This document shows, piece after piece, positions 6,574-12,783 of a stretch of DNA of 12,783 nt. The position numbers and the translations under genes were made by a program. The DNA is taken from IMG/VR virus record IMGVR_UViG_2636415418_000003; one strand, 5' to 3'. Under the pieces are notes generated by a model. The model saw only the letters and a program-made list of their open reading frames with translations, ran no database searches and was not told the origin of the DNA. The DNA is from a virus (taxonomy: Duplodnaviria > Heunggongvirae > Uroviricota > Caudoviricetes). Every line of letters starts with the position of its first letter. The first letter of the stretch is position 1.

Positions 6574-8002
6574 CGCTATCTGTGGCAGTGGAAAAAGCTA
6601 CAAACTCAAACAATATATAAAGAACAATCCTGATAAACGAATCCTAATAGCTGTCCCAACACACGAATTAGCTTCTCAAACACAATCAGACCTCCAGAAA
6701 CTCGGCATTCCTGCATATCACAACCAGGTAGATAATGGCGAGAGCGCAACACGATCACTAATAAACGCGCTGGATGATGATTTTGGGCGAAACATTGTTA
6801 TTGTGACTCACGAATGCCTACTACATTTTTGTTTATATGCGTATCGTGATGAGAAAACCCAGAATAAATTACATCTGTTTGACATCTATATAGATGAAAT
6901 CCCCACAGCCTGGTACGGGGCTGAGGTTGATTATAAAAATGAGGAATATCGAAACTCCAACTTCCCATTTCTCGGATGGTTAGAGGAACGGGACGGTCTA
7001 CGTTTTGTTCGTCATGAGGACAGAGAAAAATTCCTCGCCTATTACCAGAGTGAACACGCTAACAGTAAACTGTTAAAACAGGCTCTATTTGCCTTGCTCA
7101 CAGGGCAGGGAATGCTGTTAGAGGAGGATAAATATTTTTTCTCGTTTACTGCTAACCCAATCCTGTATAGCGCCCTGTGGGCTAAATCATTCACTGTGTT
7201 AGGCGCTAACGTTGGGATTAGTGAGTTTGCCTACGCCGCTAAAACTATTCTGAATGCAGAAATCTCGCTGGCTGATGATGAGTTGCAGCCGGACCTGATG
7301 CGCCGCGTTCATACTGACACAAAAAGAATTGAACTGATCCCGGTGTTTAACCAGAAATGTACAAAAAAACTACTGAGTGAAAATTACAGCGATATCCTGA
7401 ACGGGACACGCAGAGCGCTGAGAGACGGCTTTATTTATACCAGCAACAACGATGAGCAGTACAGCAACGGGTTTTACTACGCCTCACATGCTGATGACGT
7501 GTTAGAAGGTGGTGAGCGTGTTTCAATGGCATCCTATGGCCTGAACCATTACCAGCACCTGAATAAAGCCGCATTCTTGGGATGTGCAAACCTCGACAAA
7601 ACAACCATTGGACACTGGCGCAAGTATTGTGATCTAAATGGCTGGGACTGGCGTGAGTTAGAGGAGAAACGGCAGGCAGCACTGAACTACGAAAAGGTTT
7701 ATCAATTCGTTTCCCGCTGTTCTGTCCGTGTTAGAGGGAACAACAATAAACAGGTTTATATCATCCCTGATGTCGGTTGTGCTGAATATCTCAAACAACA
7801 TTATTTTCCAGATGCAGTGATCAAACCAGCGATGATAAAAGCTGAAAGGAAAAAGAGAGATACGTCTAAAGGCGATTCGAAACTTCAGTTAATCAAGGGA
7901 CTATTGGACGAAGGTTATAAACAGAGTCAGATTATTGCAATCACAGGTTTTAAAGAAAATTCAGTTAAGGGATACTTAAAAAGAATCCGAAAAGCAGCAT
8001 AA
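6533..8002 (+). CDS. P-loop NTPase with helicase-like motifs and a C-terminal sigma-70 region-4-like HTH (489 aa)
   Basis: Walker A CGSGKS near the N-terminus; PTHELA (resembles helicase motif Ia); Walker B-like LFDIYIDE; C-terminal IAITGFKENSVKGYLKRIRK resembles sigma region 4 / LuxR-type HTH. ATG at 6533 with SD agagga (6522-6527) preferred over the TTG at 6518 in the ORF track. Confidence 0.85.
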   Translation: MQKTEQSLKLKIVNAICGSGKSYKLKQYIKNNPDKRILIAVPTHELASQTQSDLQKLGIPAYHNQVDNGESATRSLINALDDDFGRNIVIVTHECLLHFCLYAYRDEKTQNKLHLFDIYIDEIPTAWYGAEVDYKNEEYRNSNFPFLGWLEERDGLRFVRHEDREKFLAYYQSEHANSKLLKQALFALLTGQGMLLEEDKYFFSFTANPILYSALWAKSFTVLGANVGISEFAYAAKTILNAEISLADDELQPDLMRRVHTDTKRIELIPVFNQKCTKKLLSENYSDILNGTRRALRDGFIYTSNNDEQYSNGFYYASHADDVLEGGERVSMASYGLNHYQHLNKAAFLGCANLDKTTIGHWRKYCDLNGWDWRELEEKRQAALNYEKVYQFVSRCSVRVRGNNNKQVYIIPDVGCAEYLKQHYFPDAVIKPAMIKAERKKRDTSKGDSKLQLIKGLLDEGYKQSQIIAITGFKENSVKGYLKRIRKAA

Positions 8003-8006
8003 ATCA

Positions 8007-8060
8007 ACGGCGTCCGAAAATCCGGACGGCGTTAAATTAAACCCACCCGAAAGTTCGGGT
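8007..8060 (+). other. Two consecutive GC-rich hairpins between the ATPase gene and the next gene; possible partial terminator or RNA-processing / protein-binding site
   Basis: Hairpin 1: 8007-8016 pairs with 8023-8032 (one mismatch). Hairpin 2: acccg (8045-8049) / cgggt (8056-8060). Neither is followed by a clear T tract. Confidence 0.3.
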
Positions 8061-8089
8061 ACCGTTAAATAATAATCATTGGAGGAATA

Positions 8090-8452
8090 TTGGCATATGC
8101 ACGACAAAATGTAGTATTTGAGGAATCAACAGAAATCGGATTTAACAGCAGAACAAAAAAAGTAAAAATCCCTAAGAAGTTAAAACCTCTAAAAATAATC
8201 AAACTCTACGAAGAATCTGCACTACTGACACCAGAAGAACAATCAATAATTAACTCTATGGCTGGTGTAACGTGGAAGCCCCGCCAGAGGTATTCCGGAT
8301 TCAAGTTCAATCGTGAACCGCTCAAATTTGAGTACCTGTTTGATAACATCAATGAGTATGAGGGCTGGTTAGAATTCAATCGCCTTGAGAATGAAAACTT
8401 TAATGGGAATGATCTTGGACTAGATTTTGATGCCAACGGCATCTCTGATTAA
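8090..8452 (+). CDS. Hypothetical protein (120 aa) with probable TTG start
   Basis: Only in-frame start after the upstream stop is TTG at 8090, preceded by SD GGAGGA (8081-8086) at a short 3-nt spacing; acidic C-terminus. Confidence 0.55.
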   Translation: MAYARQNVVFEESTEIGFNSRTKKVKIPKKLKPLKIIKLYEESALLTPEEQSIINSMAGVTWKPRQRYSGFKFNREPLKFEYLFDNINEYEGWLEFNRLENENFNGNDLGLDFDANGISD

Positions 8453-8480
8453 TTATTATAAAAATAACAGGAAGGTAAAA

Positions 8481-8768
8481 ATGATTGATTTTGAACAACA
8501 CAAAAACATTGTAGAACAGTTTGTAGAACAGCATTACCCGCTCGCGCATAGTCTGATGTTGGATAGTTATATTGACCCAGAAGCCTATTATTCAAACTAC
8601 CAAATGCTACTAGAAGCGATGAATAAATTGCCTGAACATCCTGAGTGCTTTTTAGAGTGGCTCTTAGAAGCTGATGCAGCTTTGTATATTAATCTGATGG
8701 AACTTGTTGTAATAACCAGAACTATTCATAACGTGTTTGAACAAGTTTCGTCTGGAGGGATGGAATAA
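8481..8768 (+). CDS. Acidic hypothetical protein (95 aa)
   Basis: ATG at 8481 with SD aggaagg (8469-8475) at 5-nt spacing, preferred over the TTG at 8427 in the ORF track, which would overlap the upstream gene. Confidence 0.65.
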   Translation: MIDFEQHKNIVEQFVEQHYPLAHSLMLDSYIDPEAYYSNYQMLLEAMNKLPEHPECFLEWLLEADAALYINLMELVVITRTIHNVFEQVSSGGME

Positions 8769-9052
8769 TGTTTAAACGGAATAAACCCTCGGAGCATCCA
8801 ACAATCACCTCTGGAAGATATCATACACAGGACGGGAATATTTATATCCAACGTGATGATGGTATCTGGAAGCAAAATGTTAACTACCTCGCTGCTATTC
8901 CTAATCAGTACGGATGCACCACCTACGAGGAACAATTTGAGAAGATTATAGGTCACATCGATAACGGTAAATTACGTGGTACATACGCCTCTACGATGCA
9001 TTATAAAATGATAGATGGTAAACTCTATAGATTTAATGAGAAAACGTCTTAG
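8768..9052 (+). CDS. Hypothetical protein (94 aa) with repeated DG-x-IY / DGKLY beta-hairpin-like motifs
   Basis: ATG overlaps the upstream stop (TAATG); SD ggaggg (8754-8759) at 8-nt spacing; last gene of the operon. Confidence 0.65.
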   Translation: MFKRNKPSEHPTITSGRYHTQDGNIYIQRDDGIWKQNVNYLAAIPNQYGCTTYEEQFEKIIGHIDNGKLRGTYASTMHYKMIDGKLYRFNEKTS

Positions 9053-9111
9053 AATGCCACTTTTATACCCCTTTTTATACACCTTATCGTTTCTCAAAAA
9101 ATATTAAAAAT

Positions 9112-9137
9112 GTCTCTATTTAGAGACTCTATTTATT
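9112..9137 (+). terminator. Weak hairpin plus T-rich tract after the operon; possible terminator
   Basis: gtctct (9112-9117) / agagac (9122-9127) with 4-nt loop, followed by tctatttatt; the stem is short and AT-containing. Confidence 0.25.
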
Positions 9138-9164
9138 GACAAAATAATGTTTTAATGTTATTAT
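9136..9164 (+). promoter_or_regulatory. Near-consensus sigma-70 promoter (TTGACA, 17-nt spacer, TATTAT)
   Basis: -35 ttgaca at 9136-9141 (exact consensus), spacer 9142-9158, -10 tattat at 9159-9164; predicted start near 9171. Confidence 0.5.
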
Positions 9165-9309
9165 AAATATGTAGACAATAATCAACGGATGCTATACTTA
9201 GAATATTGTTTACTACAGAAAAAGTAGGCGTTACTGGCATTACGCCTTCCTTGGGAATCCTCACAGTTTGCTCCGGGACTAGTTCACCCATCCACGATAA
9301 CTGTGGGGC

Positions 9310-9349
9310 AATTCTCAATATATATTTTCGTGAGTGTATATTGAGAATT
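9310..9349 (+). repeat. Perfect 13-bp inverted repeat aattctcaatata / tatattgagaatt with 14-nt loop
   Basis: Read directly; inside the candidate leader RNA; could be an RNA hairpin or a DNA operator. Confidence 0.6.
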
Positions 9350-9401
9350 AATCCGCCAAAAAGTTTAGTTCAATGTTAATCAATTATTCTTCTTATGTTT
9401 T

Positions 9402-9437
9402 AAGGCCACTATTTCTGTGGCCTTTCTTTTATTCTTT
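9402..9437 (+). terminator. Intrinsic terminator about 30 nt upstream of the downstream module
   Basis: Stem aaggccac (9402-9409) / gtggcctt (9417-9424) with 7-nt loop, followed by a T-rich tract to 9437. Confidence 0.55.
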
Positions 9438-9465
9438 GCAAAGAAACAAAAGGATTTTAAAAATT

Positions 9466-9690
9466 ATGGTTACAATTACAAAAGGCGTCCAAACGTTTGA
9501 CGGGAAAATCCCCGTTACTCTGTTGGTTGATGATGTCGAAACGGCAAACGAGTTAATCAAGCTCGCTAAAGCTGCAAATGTCCCTGTAGTAGAACAGGAA
9601 GAAGATTTAAATAAATCTAAAAATAAAACTACTCAAGATAAACTAAAACAGATTATTAAAAACAAAGGGGTTCCTAATGGCACTAATTAA
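9466..9690 (+). CDS. Hypothetical protein (74 aa); start uncertain
   Basis: ATG at 9466 with weak SD aagga at ~11-nt spacing; the alternative in-frame ATG at 9373 would put the terminator hairpin inside the coding sequence and has no SD; 14-nt overlap with the next gene. Confidence 0.45.
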   Translation: MVTITKGVQTFDGKIPVTLLVDDVETANELIKLAKAANVPVVEQEEDLNKSKNKTTQDKLKQIIKNKGVPNGTN

Positions 9691-10027
9691 ATTCCCACAA
9701 CCTAATCTCAGCGTCTGCGACGTTCTGAGCCGTGAATTAAACGGCTACAGCCGAAAAGTTAAAGTTTTTCCAAAGATTCCTGATTGCGTCCCTGGAACTG
9801 TGATTGATGATAGCGGCGAAATTGTCGGTTCGGCTTCTACCTCTGCGAACGTGGTCCTTGAATATAAAGACGCAGACACTACGCCTGTCGCTGTTCTGGT
9901 AGCAAATACGAATATCCATATCAAGGATTTCAGTTTGGTTTGTGATGATGTAGCAAAAGCTAAAGAACTACTTTCTGCTGATCCTGCTGTTTATTTCAGC
10001 ACTGGCAATGATTTGCCAACTACCTGA
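9677..10027 (+). CDS. Hypothetical protein (116 aa)
   Basis: ATG at 9677 with SD aagggg (9665-9670) at 6-nt spacing; sits immediately upstream of the 346-aa gene, the position a head-decoration gene would occupy in a lambda-like head module (speculative). Confidence 0.6.
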   Translation: MALIKFPQPNLSVCDVLSRELNGYSRKVKVFPKIPDCVPGTVIDDSGEIVGSASTSANVVLEYKDADTTPVAVLVANTNIHIKDFSLVCDDVAKAKELLSADPAVYFSTGNDLPTT

Positions 10028-10068
10028 TTAAAATAATCCACAAACTAAAATAATAAAGGAAAAATAAT

Positions 10069-11109
10069 ATGTTTTCATATGATGCCTATAAAATGGTAGA
10101 CCTTGCCCCGATTTTTGAAGTTGCACCGAGTGAAGGTTACTTACTACAGAATTTAAACATCTTTGATAAATCTTCGAGTGACGGCATTTATGTCATGCTC
10201 GATCGCCTTATCGAAGATAATAAAACCCTCCTGAACCAACCGAAAAAACGTTACAGTTTTGAACACGATTCGACGGCCCGGACTCCCGCAAATAGTTTCC
10301 CGGTAGAACTTCTGCACCTGCACCGCGAGGATACTGTGAGCGCTGTTGATTTTCAGAAAGCTGGACGCAAACCGGGGACAGATGTTCAGGAAACCATGCT
10401 CGATATCGTCGCGGATTACACCCTCAAACACGCTAAATCCTATAAGCGCTATATCGAGGCTGCATACGGTGATGCTCTGTTTCGTGGGCTGGTTCAGACC
10501 CCGTACACTCAGGAAGCACCAGTTATTGATTATGCTGACAGTTTCGATGCCCCGATGATGGCAGACACTATCAATCTGTCCAACGGCTCTACCGATGCGT
10601 TGGAAGTGTTTAATGGCTTCTTGGATAAAATTAGCACTGCCACAGATGGTTTGTGGACTGATGTTCGCCGTGTTGTCTGTTTTGCATCTGCAAGCTTCTA
10701 TAATAGCCTGCGTTTTCATGCCTCTATGAAAAGCGCTTACCAGTACGTTGACCCATTTAACGAGATGAATATCGTTTATCAGCGCAAAGAGGTTTTGCCA
10801 AATGTGCAAACCTTCACCTTGCCAGGACTGAGCATAGACGTGATCAAGGTGACTGACCCGCTTCTTACTCCGTTTATCGCTGACGGTACAGCGGTCATGC
10901 TGCCAGTATTCCAAAGCAACACGAACGTTTATCAACATCTGTACGGTCCTGCCTCAGTTGATACTAATCTAGCGGCGTCTGGCATTACTCAAGAATATTT
11001 CTCCTATCAGTACGAGAAAGAGCGTGGTGAGGTTGAAATTGTATCAGAGGCGTCGGTGTTGCCTGTAAATCACGGTACCAATTTCAGTCTGGTTATCACT
11101 GCCAATTAA
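10069..11109 (+). CDS. Hypothetical protein (346 aa); candidate virion structural (capsid-like) protein, unverified
   Basis: ATG at 10069 with SD aagga (10056-10060) at 8-nt spacing; ordinary amino-acid composition, whereas the antisense ORF 10153-10938 is Cys/Trp/His-rich; size and gene order are compatible with a major capsid protein but I see no conclusive motif. Confidence 0.8.
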   Translation: MFSYDAYKMVDLAPIFEVAPSEGYLLQNLNIFDKSSSDGIYVMLDRLIEDNKTLLNQPKKRYSFEHDSTARTPANSFPVELLHLHREDTVSAVDFQKAGRKPGTDVQETMLDIVADYTLKHAKSYKRYIEAAYGDALFRGLVQTPYTQEAPVIDYADSFDAPMMADTINLSNGSTDALEVFNGFLDKISTATDGLWTDVRRVVCFASASFYNSLRFHASMKSAYQYVDPFNEMNIVYQRKEVLPNVQTFTLPGLSIDVIKVTDPLLTPFIADGTAVMLPVFQSNTNVYQHLYGPASVDTNLAASGITQEYFSYQYEKERGEVEIVSEASVLPVNHGTNFSLVITAN

Positions 11110-11119
11110 TGATCTTCGC

Positions 11120-11150
11120 AGCAGCATTAACCGTGCTGCTTGTTGAATTA
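11120..11150 (+). terminator. Weak hairpin after the 346-aa gene
   Basis: agcagca (11120-11126) / tgctgct (11134-11140) with 7-nt loop, followed by tgttgaatta; poor T tract. Confidence 0.2.
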
Positions 11151-11211
11151 TGGATTGGTGAGCGAATTCCAGTTCATATAATAATTATTCTATTGTGGAG
11201 ATTGTTAAAAA

Positions 11212-11415
11212 ATGACAGCACAAATAATCCTTAAAGATGAAAACGGAAACTTCGCTACTATTGACGATCTCAGCGATTGGGATTTATTTAGGTTAATCAA
11301 TATTACACGGTTAGCCAAAAAAACCGGGAGGAATCGTCATACTATTGCAGCACACGTATGCAGGCAATACCCCGATGGCGAGTATAGAAGTTTGGTAACA
11401 GCATTAAACAAATAA
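11212..11415 (+). CDS. Small hypothetical protein (67 aa) with possible helix-turn-helix
   Basis: ATG at 11212; SD ggag at a long ~11-nt spacing; segment INITRLAKKTGRNRHTIAAHV has an HTH-like pattern. Confidence 0.45.
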   Translation: MTAQIILKDENGNFATIDDLSDWDLFRLINITRLAKKTGRNRHTIAAHVCRQYPDGEYRSLVTALNK

Positions 11416-11431
11416 AAATTTAAATTATATA

Positions 11432-11467
11432 AAGCCTCTGCCCTGTTTGGTCAGGGGCTTTTTTATT
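11432..11467 (+). terminator. Bulged hairpin plus T tract; possible partial terminator before the last gene
   Basis: Outer helix aagcc (11432-11436) / ggctt (11456-11460) and inner helix ccctg (11441-11445) / caggg (11452-11456) as alternative pairings, followed by tttttatt; the next gene starts 12 nt later, so read-through is likely. Confidence 0.35.
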
Positions 11468-11478
11468 ATGGAGTAGCT

Positions 11479-12783
11479 ATGGCAACTAAGGTAGAAGCAG
11501 CAACACTGGTTAACAGGATTGTTTATAAGTCTGATTTAAACAGTCTGAAAAAAGTTAGAAATGACATGAAAAAACTGCAAAAAGACTTCAGCAAAACAGA
11601 GGGAACTATAGCCAAAGCAAAGATGCAGGCTCAAAAACAGGCGTACACTGCACAAATGCAGCAGCAGAAACAGGTTCAACAACAGCAGAAACAAGCTGCA
11701 AAACAACAAGCAGTAGATGCAAAGGCTAAGGCTAATGAGCAAAAAAAGCTGGCGGCAGCCCAGAGCATAGCGGCTAAAATCCAGCTTCAGCAGCAGGCTA
11801 AAACCGCTAAAACAAATGAAAACGCCATGCTGGCTCAACGCAAGGCTCTTTTCGACATCGGTAGGCTCCAGGGTCTAAATGGTACAGAGAGGTTGGCAGC
11901 AGCACGACACGCCCAGAATCTGGTTAAACAGTACCAAGCAGGTGCAATCAGCCTCCGGGATTTAAACAGCCAAATGGCTATACATATGGCTCAGCAAAAG
12001 GCCCTGGCAAGGAATAACAATCAGCAGGCAAAAAAATCAGGTCAGGGAAAAAAATCTGGTTCTTCAGGTTGGGTTGCACGTAATGCTGGCGCGATACTGC
12101 CCGTGGACAAAATTTTAGGACCCACAGCCGCTGCATATCTAGGTACTCAGGCCTACCAGATTATATCCGGAACACTGGCGGGAGCAGTAGAACGGAACCA
12201 GGGCAGGAAGATGATCCAGAGTTTTGGTGGAAACGACCTTGAGTATATGGCGTTGAGACAGGAATCTCTGAAAAGAACAGGTTTTGACATCTCTAGGGAC
12301 AAATACGCCGATATTAGTAAAGACCTAAAGGACCGCCAGGGTGATTTAACTTTTGGTAGCACTGATAAAAACGGCAATTTTACTGGTGGTGGTGAGTTCT
12401 CGGATTTGGTCAACGTCATGCGCCAGAGGATGGGTTACTCCAACGGCGGCGCTGTCAAACAGTTGCAGTCGCTAAAAACGCCAGTCGAGTTTGCTGTGAT
12501 GCTGCGCGGGATGCTTGAATCAGGCAAAATCACCACGCAGGAATTTGTCAATATGGGGGAAAGGATCAATGACGCCTCATATGTTCTGAATAGCGTTGAT
12601 TCTGGTGGTCAGAACCTGATAAAAACTATGGATACCTTGGTTGATTCTCATTTAGCACTAACGACTGCTCAACAGAAATCTATTAATAATCTAACAGAGA
12701 TGTCAGCAGTATTTAATCAAGCAAAAGAAGCTTTGGGTGATCAATTTGCAGCTTCCTTTAGCATGAAGTGGTTTACTGAATTT
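11479..12783 (+). CDS. Large Gln/Ala/Lys-rich coiled-coil protein, 3'-partial (at least 435 aa); tape-measure-like or scaffold-like, unverified
   Basis: ATG at 11479 with SD ggag (11470-11473) at 5-nt spacing; I translated the frame by hand to the window end with no stop; missing from the ORF track only because it has no stop in the window; N-terminal ~170 aa are Q/A/K-rich, followed by Gly-rich hydrophobic segments. Confidence 0.8.
   Translation, partial: MATKVEAATLVNRIVYKSDLNSLKKVRNDMKKLQKDFSKTEGTIAKAKMQAQKQAYTAQMQQQKQVQQQQKQAAKQQAVDAKAKANEQKKLAAAQSIAAKIQLQQQAKTAKTNENAMLAQRKALFDIGRLQGLNGTERLAAARHAQNLVKQYQAGAISLRDLNSQMAIHMAQQKALARNNNQQAKKSGQGKKSGSSGWVARNAGAILPVDKILGPTAAAYLGTQAYQIISGTLAGAVERNQGRKMIQSFGGNDLEYMALRQESLKRTGFDISRDKYADISKDLKDRQGDLTFGSTDKNGNFTGGGEFSDLVNVMRQRMGYSNGGAVKQLQSLKTPVEFAVMLRGMLESGKITTQEFVNMGERINDASYVLNSVDSGGQNLIKTMDTLVDSHLALTTAQQKSINNLTEMSAVFNQAKEALGDQFAASFSMKWFTEF

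Follow-up and report, generated by a model that had tools for sequence, protein, structure and literature searches.

A tRNA-Thr-integrated island of Enterobacterales with genes for a major capsid protein, a probable cement protein and a tape-measure homologue: a candidate satellite of phi92-like virulent phages

Analysis of a 12,783-nt stretch of viral DNA (IMG/VR record IMGVR_UViG_2636415418_000003, Caudoviricetes; the window, below, means this whole stretch) revealed most of a 13.5-kb island whose late operon encodes a probable capsid cement protein (g2), a major capsid protein of the HK97 fold (g3) and a homologue of tail tape-measure proteins (TMPs; g5). The reading that we favour, at a probability of roughly 0.6, treats this island as a satellite of large virulent phages of the phi92 kind that infect Klebsiella and Escherichia coli; it would build its own small shell and place its own TMP into tails stolen from the helper. 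We infer, by analogy, that such an element would combine the making of an own shell, as practised by phage-inducible chromosomal islands (PICIs; Ccm of SaPIbov5, and PmCI172), with the supply of an own TMP, as practised by PICI-like elements (PLEs). A first-pass annotation of the window, made by a model from the letters and open reading frame (ORF) translations alone, had described five co-directional genes behind a leader and terminator. These are present as ORFs of 74, 116, 346, 67 and >435 aa, following a promoter (9136–9164), a structured leader and a terminator (9402–9424), and all five (g1 to g5) recur with the same lengths in identical or related islands, which marks them as real genes. 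The features of this operon are as follows.

9136–9164, plus strand: sigma70-like late-operon promoter (TTGACA-17-TATTAT, with TG upstream; the consensus is matched at 11 of 12 positions), conserved in five relatives
9165–9432, plus strand: structured leader RNA of ~230 nt, ending in an intrinsic terminator
9466–9690, plus strand: g1, 74 aa, with residues 1–51 conserved throughout the family and a C-terminus that is part of a swapped cassette
9677–10027, plus strand: g2, 116-aa probable capsid cement/decoration protein, ending 41 nt before g3
10069–11109, plus strand: g3, 346-aa HK97-fold major capsid protein of the lambda gpE/PF03864 family, as assigned from sequence and predicted structure
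11212–11415, plus strand: g4, 67 aa, conserved in position; its final 19 residues do not differ between cassette types
11441–11456, plus strand: terminator-like hairpin between g4 and g5, CCCTGTTTGGTCAGGG and then a T run
11479–12763, plus strand: g5, TMP homologue, with the first 428 codons in the window and 603 in intact copies
12764–12783, no strand assigned: 20-nt end segment that is not part of g5; contigs L003–L007 continue the ORF here, where the window diverges

Judged by its sequence and its predicted structure, g3 is an HK97-fold major capsid protein. It matched Pfam PF03864 with E=1.3e-19 (70.9 bits against a gathering cut-off of 22.9, covering profile positions 4–322 of 329) and phrog_29, the major head protein, and PF03864 was present in all 33 clusters of g3 homologues. 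The first-pass annotation had proposed the 346-aa product as a major capsid protein and had named structure prediction with a Foldseek search as the way to check this. An AlphaFold model based on 33 homologues reached a predicted local confidence (pLDDT) of 78.8 and a predicted template-modelling score (pTM) of 0.79, and its top Foldseek matches in the PDB were HK97-fold shell proteins only (E=2.5e-20 to 1e-10, template-modelling scores of 0.6–0.72). The best of these (E=2.5e-20) was the capsid protein of phage ICP1 in its PLE-remodelled capsid, followed by those of PhiTE, Bas63, Sf14 and YSD1 and by lambda gpE, and the top matches of the model in BFVD were capsid proteins as well. When the g3 family profile was compared with PDB sequences, the capsid protein of Pakpunavirus P7-1 (9zbi_A, 1.1e-15) came first, then Phi92_gp124 (5.4e-14) and PhiTE (6e-12); P7-1, phi92 and PhiTE are virulent myoviruses with genomes far larger than the island. 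Reading g3 as an encapsulin or as part of a gene transfer agent was rejected, as its fold neighbours are phage capsids first and an integrase, att sites and a TMP gene are present.

The gene in front of g3 had been put forward as its decoration partner, and g2 is a probable capsid cement/decoration protein by its position and a profile match. The same cement-then-capsid order is found in phi92 (gp123/gp124) and in FBKp34 (gp179/gp178; vB_KpM_FBKp34, MW394390), a 141-kb virulent Klebsiella myophage of the Stephanstirmvirinae; FBKp34 gp179 belongs to phrog_2680 ('head decoration') and phi92 gp123 forms a beta-tulip trimer. A second g2 allele of 127 aa, homologous to the 116-aa allele (hhalign 94.8 %), is in every case paired with a second allele of the capsid gene, whose product is only 23 % identical to g3. 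The best PDB match of the g2 family profile was the 'Decorating protein' of Pakpunavirus P7-1 (9zbi_G) at a marginal E=0.012, with the motif GSV(I/L)D..G.LVT common to both, and the two chains of this one structure, 9zbi, pair up with the two island genes: its capsid chain is the best PDB sequence match of the g3 family and its decorating chain matches g2. One member of the g2 family also weakly matched phrog_49 ('head decoration', E=0.01). Relatives of g2 are few (7 representative clusters in an exhaustive profile search), and no similarity was seen between g2 and FBKp34 gp179.

The last gene of the window had been described as a long coiled-coil protein with Gly-rich hydrophobic segments, either tape-measure-like or scaffold-like. 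The description agrees with the composition of g5, which is Ala/Gln/Lys-rich at residues 41–190 and has a Gly-rich hydrophobic stretch at ~195–240; of the two identities offered, the tape measure stood and the scaffold did not. By sequence homology g5, which is 603 aa long in contigs with an identical backbone, is a TMP homologue. It is homologous over its full length to FBKp34 gp168 (blastp E=9e-95) and also to the equivalent protein of phage KP13-16. In FBKp34, gp168 is preceded by the genes for sheath, tube and tail-assembly chaperone (phrog_3840, 1e-34) and by an ORF of 73 aa, and the baseplate genes come after it; gp168 weakly matches the TMP families phrog_5255 and phrog_2854. Residues 269–492 of g5 match annotated TMPs of lambda-like vibriophages; in one such phage, these follow Phage_TAC_2 and Phage_tail_T genes. 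The g5 of the window itself had no match in Pfam, PHROG or NCBIfam.

Two distant islands (L018 and L022), whose capsid protein is ~40 % identical to g3, carry a protein of 619–638 aa in the position of g5 and homologous to it (blastp E=9e-13). Both match phrog_16051 ('tail length tape measure protein'), the L018 protein at E=4e-69 and the L022 protein at 5.5e-101. The latter shares 42–43 % identity with proteins annotated as TMPs in 134 phage records; most are from E. coli and Klebsiella phages, and Phapecoctavirus and Justusliebigvirus are included. After its TMP gene, the L018 island further encodes (11075–11749) a protein of 224 aa that is homologous to FBKp34 gp167 (E=3.6e-24). Judged by gene order, it is the counterpart of the phi92 tube initiator gp135, and it would be a second tail component encoded by a satellite. 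The tail-assembly chaperone pair with a programmed frameshift does not accompany g5: the only gene upstream is g4, which was rejected as a chaperone homologue for want of similarity to FBKp34 gp169 or gp170. The chaperones of the helper would therefore be needed. IMG/VR was scanned with the TMP protein and with the DNA of the TMP 3' end, and neither scan gave a match. 'Vibrio phage 187P1' (15 kb) was considered as another TMP-bearing satellite and rejected as a contig fragment of a lambda-like phage. In an E. coli relative (NZ_AP027783), g5 is truncated by IS2.

Comparison of g5 with FBKp34 gp168 revealed a protein with near-identical ends and a diverged centre. The N-terminal 40 aa are 85 % identical and 19 of the 20 C-terminal residues are the same, with ~37 % identity in the middle and residues 40–200 essentially replaced by the Ala/Gln/Lys-rich coiled coil; at 603 aa against 647 aa, the island protein is 44 residues shorter than the TMP of FBKp34. 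The likeness of the ends extends to the DNA: identity is 90 % over the first 51 nt and 98 % over the last 50 nt, in the latter with synonymous positions included, and Klebsiella islands that differ elsewhere by 20–30 % have retained this 3' block. Near-identical DNA at the ends of the gene points to a recent exchange with the phage. The C-terminus of the phi92 TMP is ordered and sits in the baseplate (PMC13450770), and for this reason the conserved termini may be just what is needed to dock into the tail machine of a helper.

A second trace of contact with the same phage lies outside the operon.

5642–5710, no strand assigned: 69-bp intergenic element upstream of the replication module, 97 % identical to FBKp34 101240–101308

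The element is conserved in relatives of the island, and beyond FBKp34 it had no match among 50,697 phage records or 72,556 plasmids; its absence from these plasmids and from all other phage records makes it unlikely to be a common insertion sequence (IS) fragment. In FBKp34 the 69-mer starts exactly after '...GGATGGGGAGGATGTCAA', an IS200/IS605-like right-end or omega-RNA-like repeat that lies 134 nt downstream of a tnpB-like gene, with a second copy of this ~80-nt repeat upstream of tnpB, and it sits where the guide of TnpB would be read. Given this arrangement, the phage may have a nuclease directed against the island, or it may have captured the IS, together with its flank, from an island. 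It is speculative, and argued by analogy with the CRISPR-Cas system of ICP1, that the tnpB element of FBKp34 acts as an RNA-guided anti-satellite nuclease. Taken together, the near-identical TMP ends and the 69-bp segment make FBKp34 or KP13-16 a concrete helper candidate.

These same data bear on a different kind of helper. The island could be a PICI-type satellite of an unsequenced temperate phage, its similarity to Stephanstirmvirinae reflecting no more than a gene pool shared among large myoviruses, and most known PF03864-bearing satellites of enterobacteria are indeed PICIs of temperate helpers; the closeness of g3 to no sequenced phage capsid, and the matching TMP in only two sequenced phages, would also be expected of such a history. 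We regard it as quite improbable, since TMP ends 90–98 % identical to FBKp34 DNA and the shared 69-bp segment point to recent physical contact with the FBKp34 lineage, and since the TMPs of L018 and L022 match the PHROGs TMP family, that of L022 also matching Stephanstirmvirinae TMPs. Nor were AlpA, Stl, a primase or a small terminase detected in Pfam and PHROG searches.

The favoured reading, a satellite of phi92-like phages, also draws on where the element begins and ends.

1142–1175, no strand assigned: attL, a 34-bp direct repeat equal to the 3' end of tRNA-Thr(CGU)

Sequence past the window end was read from contigs that encode exactly the same 346-aa protein. There, the matching 34-bp repeat (attR) lies ~1.9 kb beyond the window, just after the integrase, and contig L004 has the complete tRNA-Thr at the left junction; these repeats and the intact tRNA define a discrete 13.5-kb tRNA-integrated island. 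The first-pass annotation had advised inspecting the genes beyond 12783. Past g5 we found only a 420-aa tyrosine integrase of the DUF6538 type on the minus strand, adjoining attR, and then unrelated DNA, so that the element ends there, which fits a satellite and not a prophage. The annotation had also noted that portal, terminase and protease were lacking. Pfam and PHROG searches gave the same result in the window and beyond it, and the complete island is without portal, terminase, protease, scaffold, tube, sheath or lysis genes; its remaining ORFs received no structural, packaging or lysis assignment in Pfam, PHROG, PADLOC and further profile searches.

Phage-derived genes beside an integrase, in a tRNA hotspot with other tandem islands, might also be what is left of a decayed prophage that retained its capsid and TMP genes by chance. 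That is highly improbable in our view. The compact gene set and its order recur with intact ORFs of conserved length in many genera, at capsid identities from 40 % to 98 %; the ~10 genes that lie between the capsid and TMP genes of the phage are always absent; and the element comes with a replication module of its own, with a leader that is regulated and with exact att repeats. The earlier annotation had reasoned that the genes, if structural, would belong to a capsid-forming, satellite-like element, and otherwise to a novel effector module. The capsid, the TMP and an att-bounded island that ends past g5 favour the former; the effector module is not supported.

The tRNA-Thr site itself holds a tandem array of islands. 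To the left of the island (window 1–1141) lies a remnant with a gene for a 4-fold beta-flower protein (365–796), and to the right (L003 14645–21041) a further island, which encodes an integrase of the P4 type, AlpA, MobC and a relaxase.

The island looks like a member of an Enterobacterales family for which we found no published description. In every relative examined the backbone runs in the order short recombinase, replication module, small ORFs, leader, g1, g2, capsid, g4, cargo or TMP, and integrase. This backbone was found in 11 IMG/VR loci and in islands from a Pantoea-like organism, Raoultella, Klebsiella and E. coli, as well as in Enterobacter. The exact g3 protein is annotated from E. 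coli, and the 562 members of its 90 %-identity cluster come from E. coli, Raoultella, Klebsiella aerogenes and the Klebsiella pneumoniae complex. Homologues at a greater distance were seen in Pantoea, Pseudescherichia, Enterobacter, Serratia and Sodalis. A 90 %-identity cluster that spans E. coli, Klebsiella and Raoultella indicates recent horizontal spread of an island that carries no conjugation genes. A nucleotide search of the module against the 50,697 phage records gave no match, a search of complete E. coli genomes gave only one partial relative, and the plasmid matches were Klebsiella records with chromosomal-looking surroundings.

Mosaic origin had been suggested from the seemingly higher G+C content of the capsid and coiled-coil genes, an impression gained by eye. 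Computed values bear this out, with 0.459 for g3 and 0.451 for g5 against 0.388 for the region upstream (6212–9465), and with 0.436 for g2 and 0.312 for the leader. Mosaicism is also seen directly, as relatives with the same backbone carry a different decoration and capsid cassette, in which the capsid is 23 % identical. With respect to L001, L002, L009 and L013, the exchange covers 9622–11350 and swaps the C-terminus of g1, the whole of g2 and g3 and the N-terminus of g4, between flanks whose proteins remain 60–94 % identical. A tblastn search with the second capsid allele gave no match in the 50,697 phage records.

The slot of the TMP is exchangeable too. In a Pantoea-like relative (L014), in which the island measures 13.5 kb between tRNA-derived repeats, the defence system Kiwa (KwaA/KwaB, 9566–11108) stands between the g4-like gene and the integrase; because Kiwa fills this slot, the capsid block appears to be the constant part of the island and the TMP a part that can be lost. 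Kiwa, a bona fide defence system, in the position of the TMP also lends something to the view that the island only interferes, its capsid and TMP homologues serving as dominant-negative decoys that would join the virion proteins of invading phi92-like phages, poison head and tail assembly and thereby shield the population, the island itself not being packaged. Helper-identical TMP termini would suit a poison subunit equally well, a candidate defence gene (PDC-S31) is present on the island, and interference with tail assembly is a known strategy of satellites, as in Tai (PMC11364771) and in Rta of PLE11. We nevertheless hold such a decoy role, the main rival of the satellite reading, to be unlikely: a cement protein of its own, co-varying with the capsid, speaks for shells that are stable and filled with DNA, capsids at least 90 % identical in three genera imply efficient transfer although conjugation genes are absent, and the homologues in PLE and SaPIbov5 are built into functional satellite particles.

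Expression of the operon appears to be controlled ahead of g1. A conserved inverted repeat (9112–9127) lies just upstream of the -35 element of the late promoter. The leader contains two long hairpins and the terminator (stem 9402–9424 and T run), is more conserved than the flanking genes and has compensatory changes among five relatives at 10 of its 60 predicted base pairs; an Rfam search of it gave no matching family. From these features it looks like a switch controlled by antitermination, predicted to act in the manner of lambda PR'/tR'. The hairpin at 11441–11456 may gate the expression of g5 separately from that of the capsid genes.

If the island is a satellite of phi92-like phages, its cycle could run as follows. 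At rest, the strong promoter would fire and transcription would stop at the leader terminator. On infection by the helper, a factor of the phage or of the island would allow RNA polymerase to read through, and the capsid protein, the cement protein, the small helix–turn–helix (HTH) protein and the TMP would be made. The satellite capsid protein and its cement would then assemble on the portal and scaffold of the helper into a shell sized for 13.5 kb rather than ~140 kb, and the helper genome would be excluded by this size, on the principle of Ccm and PmCI172. The satellite TMP, keeping the N- and C-terminal docking segments of the helper, would replace the helper TMP in stolen tails, as in the PLE and ICP1 pair; with 603 aa instead of 647 aa, it would make these tails slightly shorter. 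Packaging would fall to the helper terminase.

Several observations weigh against this reading. We infer particle production and mobilization, and the predicted attP junction was absent from the metagenome and viral contig collections; the stand-alone contigs of 11–14 kb that were checked had no detectable circular overlap, and from their length by itself no episome can be argued. The g3 protein is only 19–23 % identical to any sequenced phage capsid protein (~19 % to that of FBKp34), which leaves its compatibility with the portal and scaffold of a helper unproven. A small terminase, a cos or pac signal and a tail-assembly chaperone were not identified in the island. The decoration call for g2 rests on position, co-variation and one marginal profile match (E=0.012), and its AlphaFold model, from a shallow alignment, was unusable (pLDDT 50), for which reason the assignment is probable and not proven. 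Only two sequenced phages have a TMP that matches g5, at least one branch does without the TMP and has Kiwa in its place, and two E. coli copies of the TMP are interrupted or truncated, that of L002 by an IS2 insertion and the other at the window end.

In the strain of the window, g5 appears to be interrupted, its ORF diverging at the window end. The module described in the earlier annotation extends to the last position, 12783, but the final 20 nt do not belong to g5. This segment (12764–12783, TGAAGTGGTTTACTGAATTT) differs from all contigs with the identical backbone and is either a contig end or an insertion edge; the contig probably ends inside an insertion. It resembles the terminal inverted repeat of an IS3-family element; if so, g5 is interrupted in this strain and the IS is where the contig stops.

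A satellite with its own capsid homologue, or with its own TMP, is an established concept. What appears to be new here is this combination, this gene backbone and a probable virulent helper in enterobacteria. The TMP encoded by a PLE is 20–41 % identical to that of the helper and replaces it in chimeric, slightly shorter tails (10.1101/2025.01.29.635557). Our island resembles the PLEs as a small integrated satellite with its own TMP, the helper being a virulent myovirus there and, by our reading, here; more loosely, the tail gene after the TMP gene of L018 recalls the third tail gene of the PLEs, the baseplate hub BhuB. The differences are several: the PLEs steal the capsid of ICP1 and resize it with an external scaffold, TcaP, whereas the island has its own capsid and probable cement genes; no tail-assembly chaperone was found in the island; the host of the PLEs is Vibrio cholerae, while those of the island are Enterobacterales; and the termini of the island TMP are near-identical to those of its candidate helper, even at the DNA level. 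No search returned a protein similarity between the island and the PLEs, although the PLE marker proteins (capR, repA, nixI, lidI and tcaP) were not compared directly.

Among the PICIs, satellite capsid homologues that give small capsids are known from SaPIbov5, as Ccm (PMC8569155), and from Pasteurella, in PmCI172 (PMC6092414), and capsid genes of the PF03864 family have been reported in 356 published PICIs (PMC13230959). In SaPIbov5, PmCI172 and the enterobacterial 'type A' PICIs, the capsid homologue has been linked, or is proposed to be linked, to small capsids. The island resembles these elements in being ~10–15 kb long, in its helper-type capsid homologue and in lacking a portal and a large terminase subunit. 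SatelliteFinder defines a PICI by an integrase, a regulator (AlpA, MerR or Stl), a primase-replicase, a capsid-morphogenesis gene and a small terminase or Rpp (PMC10085698). Of these five, the integrase and a PF03864 capsid gene were found in the island and the other three were not: no island ORF matched AlpA, MerR or Stl in Pfam or PHROG, the AlpA gene in L003 belonging to the neighbouring island; a DEAD/ResIII-like 494-aa protein without a primase domain stands in place of the primase-replicase; and no small terminase family was matched, the only trace being that of g4 to the HTH of phrog_141 (E=0.029). The island further differs from the PICIs in its cement partner gene, its TMP, its DUF6538-type integrase and its probable helper, a virulent 140-kb myovirus. 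The likeness of g3 to the capsid-like protein of CFT073 (PDB 3bqw) is at the level of the fold only (Foldseek rank 26).

Capsid-forming PICIs (cf-PICIs) also make a shell from their own HK97-fold capsid protein and take their tails from the helper, as we suppose for the island. However, cf-PICIs encode portal, protease, adaptor, connector, small and large terminase subunits (TerS and TerL) and HNH proteins, none of which was detected in the complete island, and their capsid proteins belong to PF05065 and not to PF03864 (PMC13230959). The EPIPs of Mycolicibacterium are small satellites reported to carry a capsid protein and a TMP and to alter capsid size and tail length (preprint, PMC12822802). 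Compared by description only, the EPIPs differ from the island in that they are actinobacterial, have a temperate siphovirus as helper and also encode a small terminase, head–tail adaptor and stopper proteins, a scaffold protein and an integrase of the serine type. Markers of P4 (psu, sid, delta, the alpha primase-helicase and a P2-like cos) had no Pfam or PHROG match in the island. With the phi92-like phages themselves, the island shares the cement-then-capsid order and a homologous TMP (FBKp34 gp168, phi92 gp134), and Phi92_gp124 is among the nearest solved capsids; it lacks the other ~20 structural genes of these phages, and its TMP is diverged in the centre and 44 residues shorter. We found no literature linking satellites to Stephanstirmvirinae or Vequintavirinae.

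We propose tentatively, at somewhat less than even odds, that the island represents an undescribed family of Enterobacterales satellites with phi92-like helpers, which supplies two determinants of virion geometry, namely the shell with its cement and a TMP whose ends mimic those of the helper. To our knowledge, satellites of virulent phages are known in depth only from the PLE–ICP1 system of Vibrio cholerae, which decides the outcome of phage predation in patients. If our proposal is correct, this family would be the first enterobacterial counterpart of that system and would provide a genetically tractable enterobacterial model for particles that mix own and stolen parts. Replacement of the TMP, described in the PLEs and suggested for the EPIPs, would then be a general strategy of satellites, and the TMP termini would be indicated as docking determinants. 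Phages of the Stephanstirmvirinae (phi92-like) are used as, or are candidates for, phage therapy against K. pneumoniae and E. coli; strains with the island could resist such therapy phages or could turn them into vehicles for the spread of the island. A named helper candidate, FBKp34 or KP13-16, makes the satellite hypothesis directly testable.

Outside the capsid and TMP genes, the late operon holds two small genes. No significant family match was obtained for g1 in Pfam, PHROG and other profile searches. Weak matches of g4, besides that to phrog_141, were to Ner and EnrR (E ~0.2–0.3), HTH_35 and Sigma70_r4, and on these grounds g4 is possibly an HTH DNA binder. The other features of the island in the window are as follows.

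1979–2680, plus strand: putative accessory cargo gene encoding a DUF2971 protein (Pfam PF11185, E=3.3e-12; PADLOC PDC-S31, E=1.2e-36)
3524–4090, minus strand: short tyrosine recombinase of 188 aa, catalytic domain only (Pfam Phage_integrase, E=6.5e-21)
6212–8002, plus strand: putative replication module with a DEAD/ResIII-like helicase protein of 494 aa and two small ORFs, of 57 and 63 aa
8090–9052, plus strand: three small ORFs of 120, 95–113 and 94 aa, 66–93 % identical in E. coli and Klebsiella relatives

The DUF2971 protein is, from its family matches, probably the accessory anti-phage cargo of the island and a candidate defence gene. The three small ORFs had no family match in Pfam, PHROG or a further profile search. 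Conserved in nearly all family members examined (27–92 % identical), the 188-aa recombinase occurs alongside the full-length integrase at the other end of the island; in its stead, a K. pneumoniae island (L001) has a 'recombinase family protein' of 183 aa, for which no similarity to it was detected. In the replication module, the 494-aa protein matched Pfam DEAD (E=3.1e-7) and phrog_2467 (E=3.2e-40), and in other relatives the module is replaced by an HTH_36 protein and a 250-aa protein.

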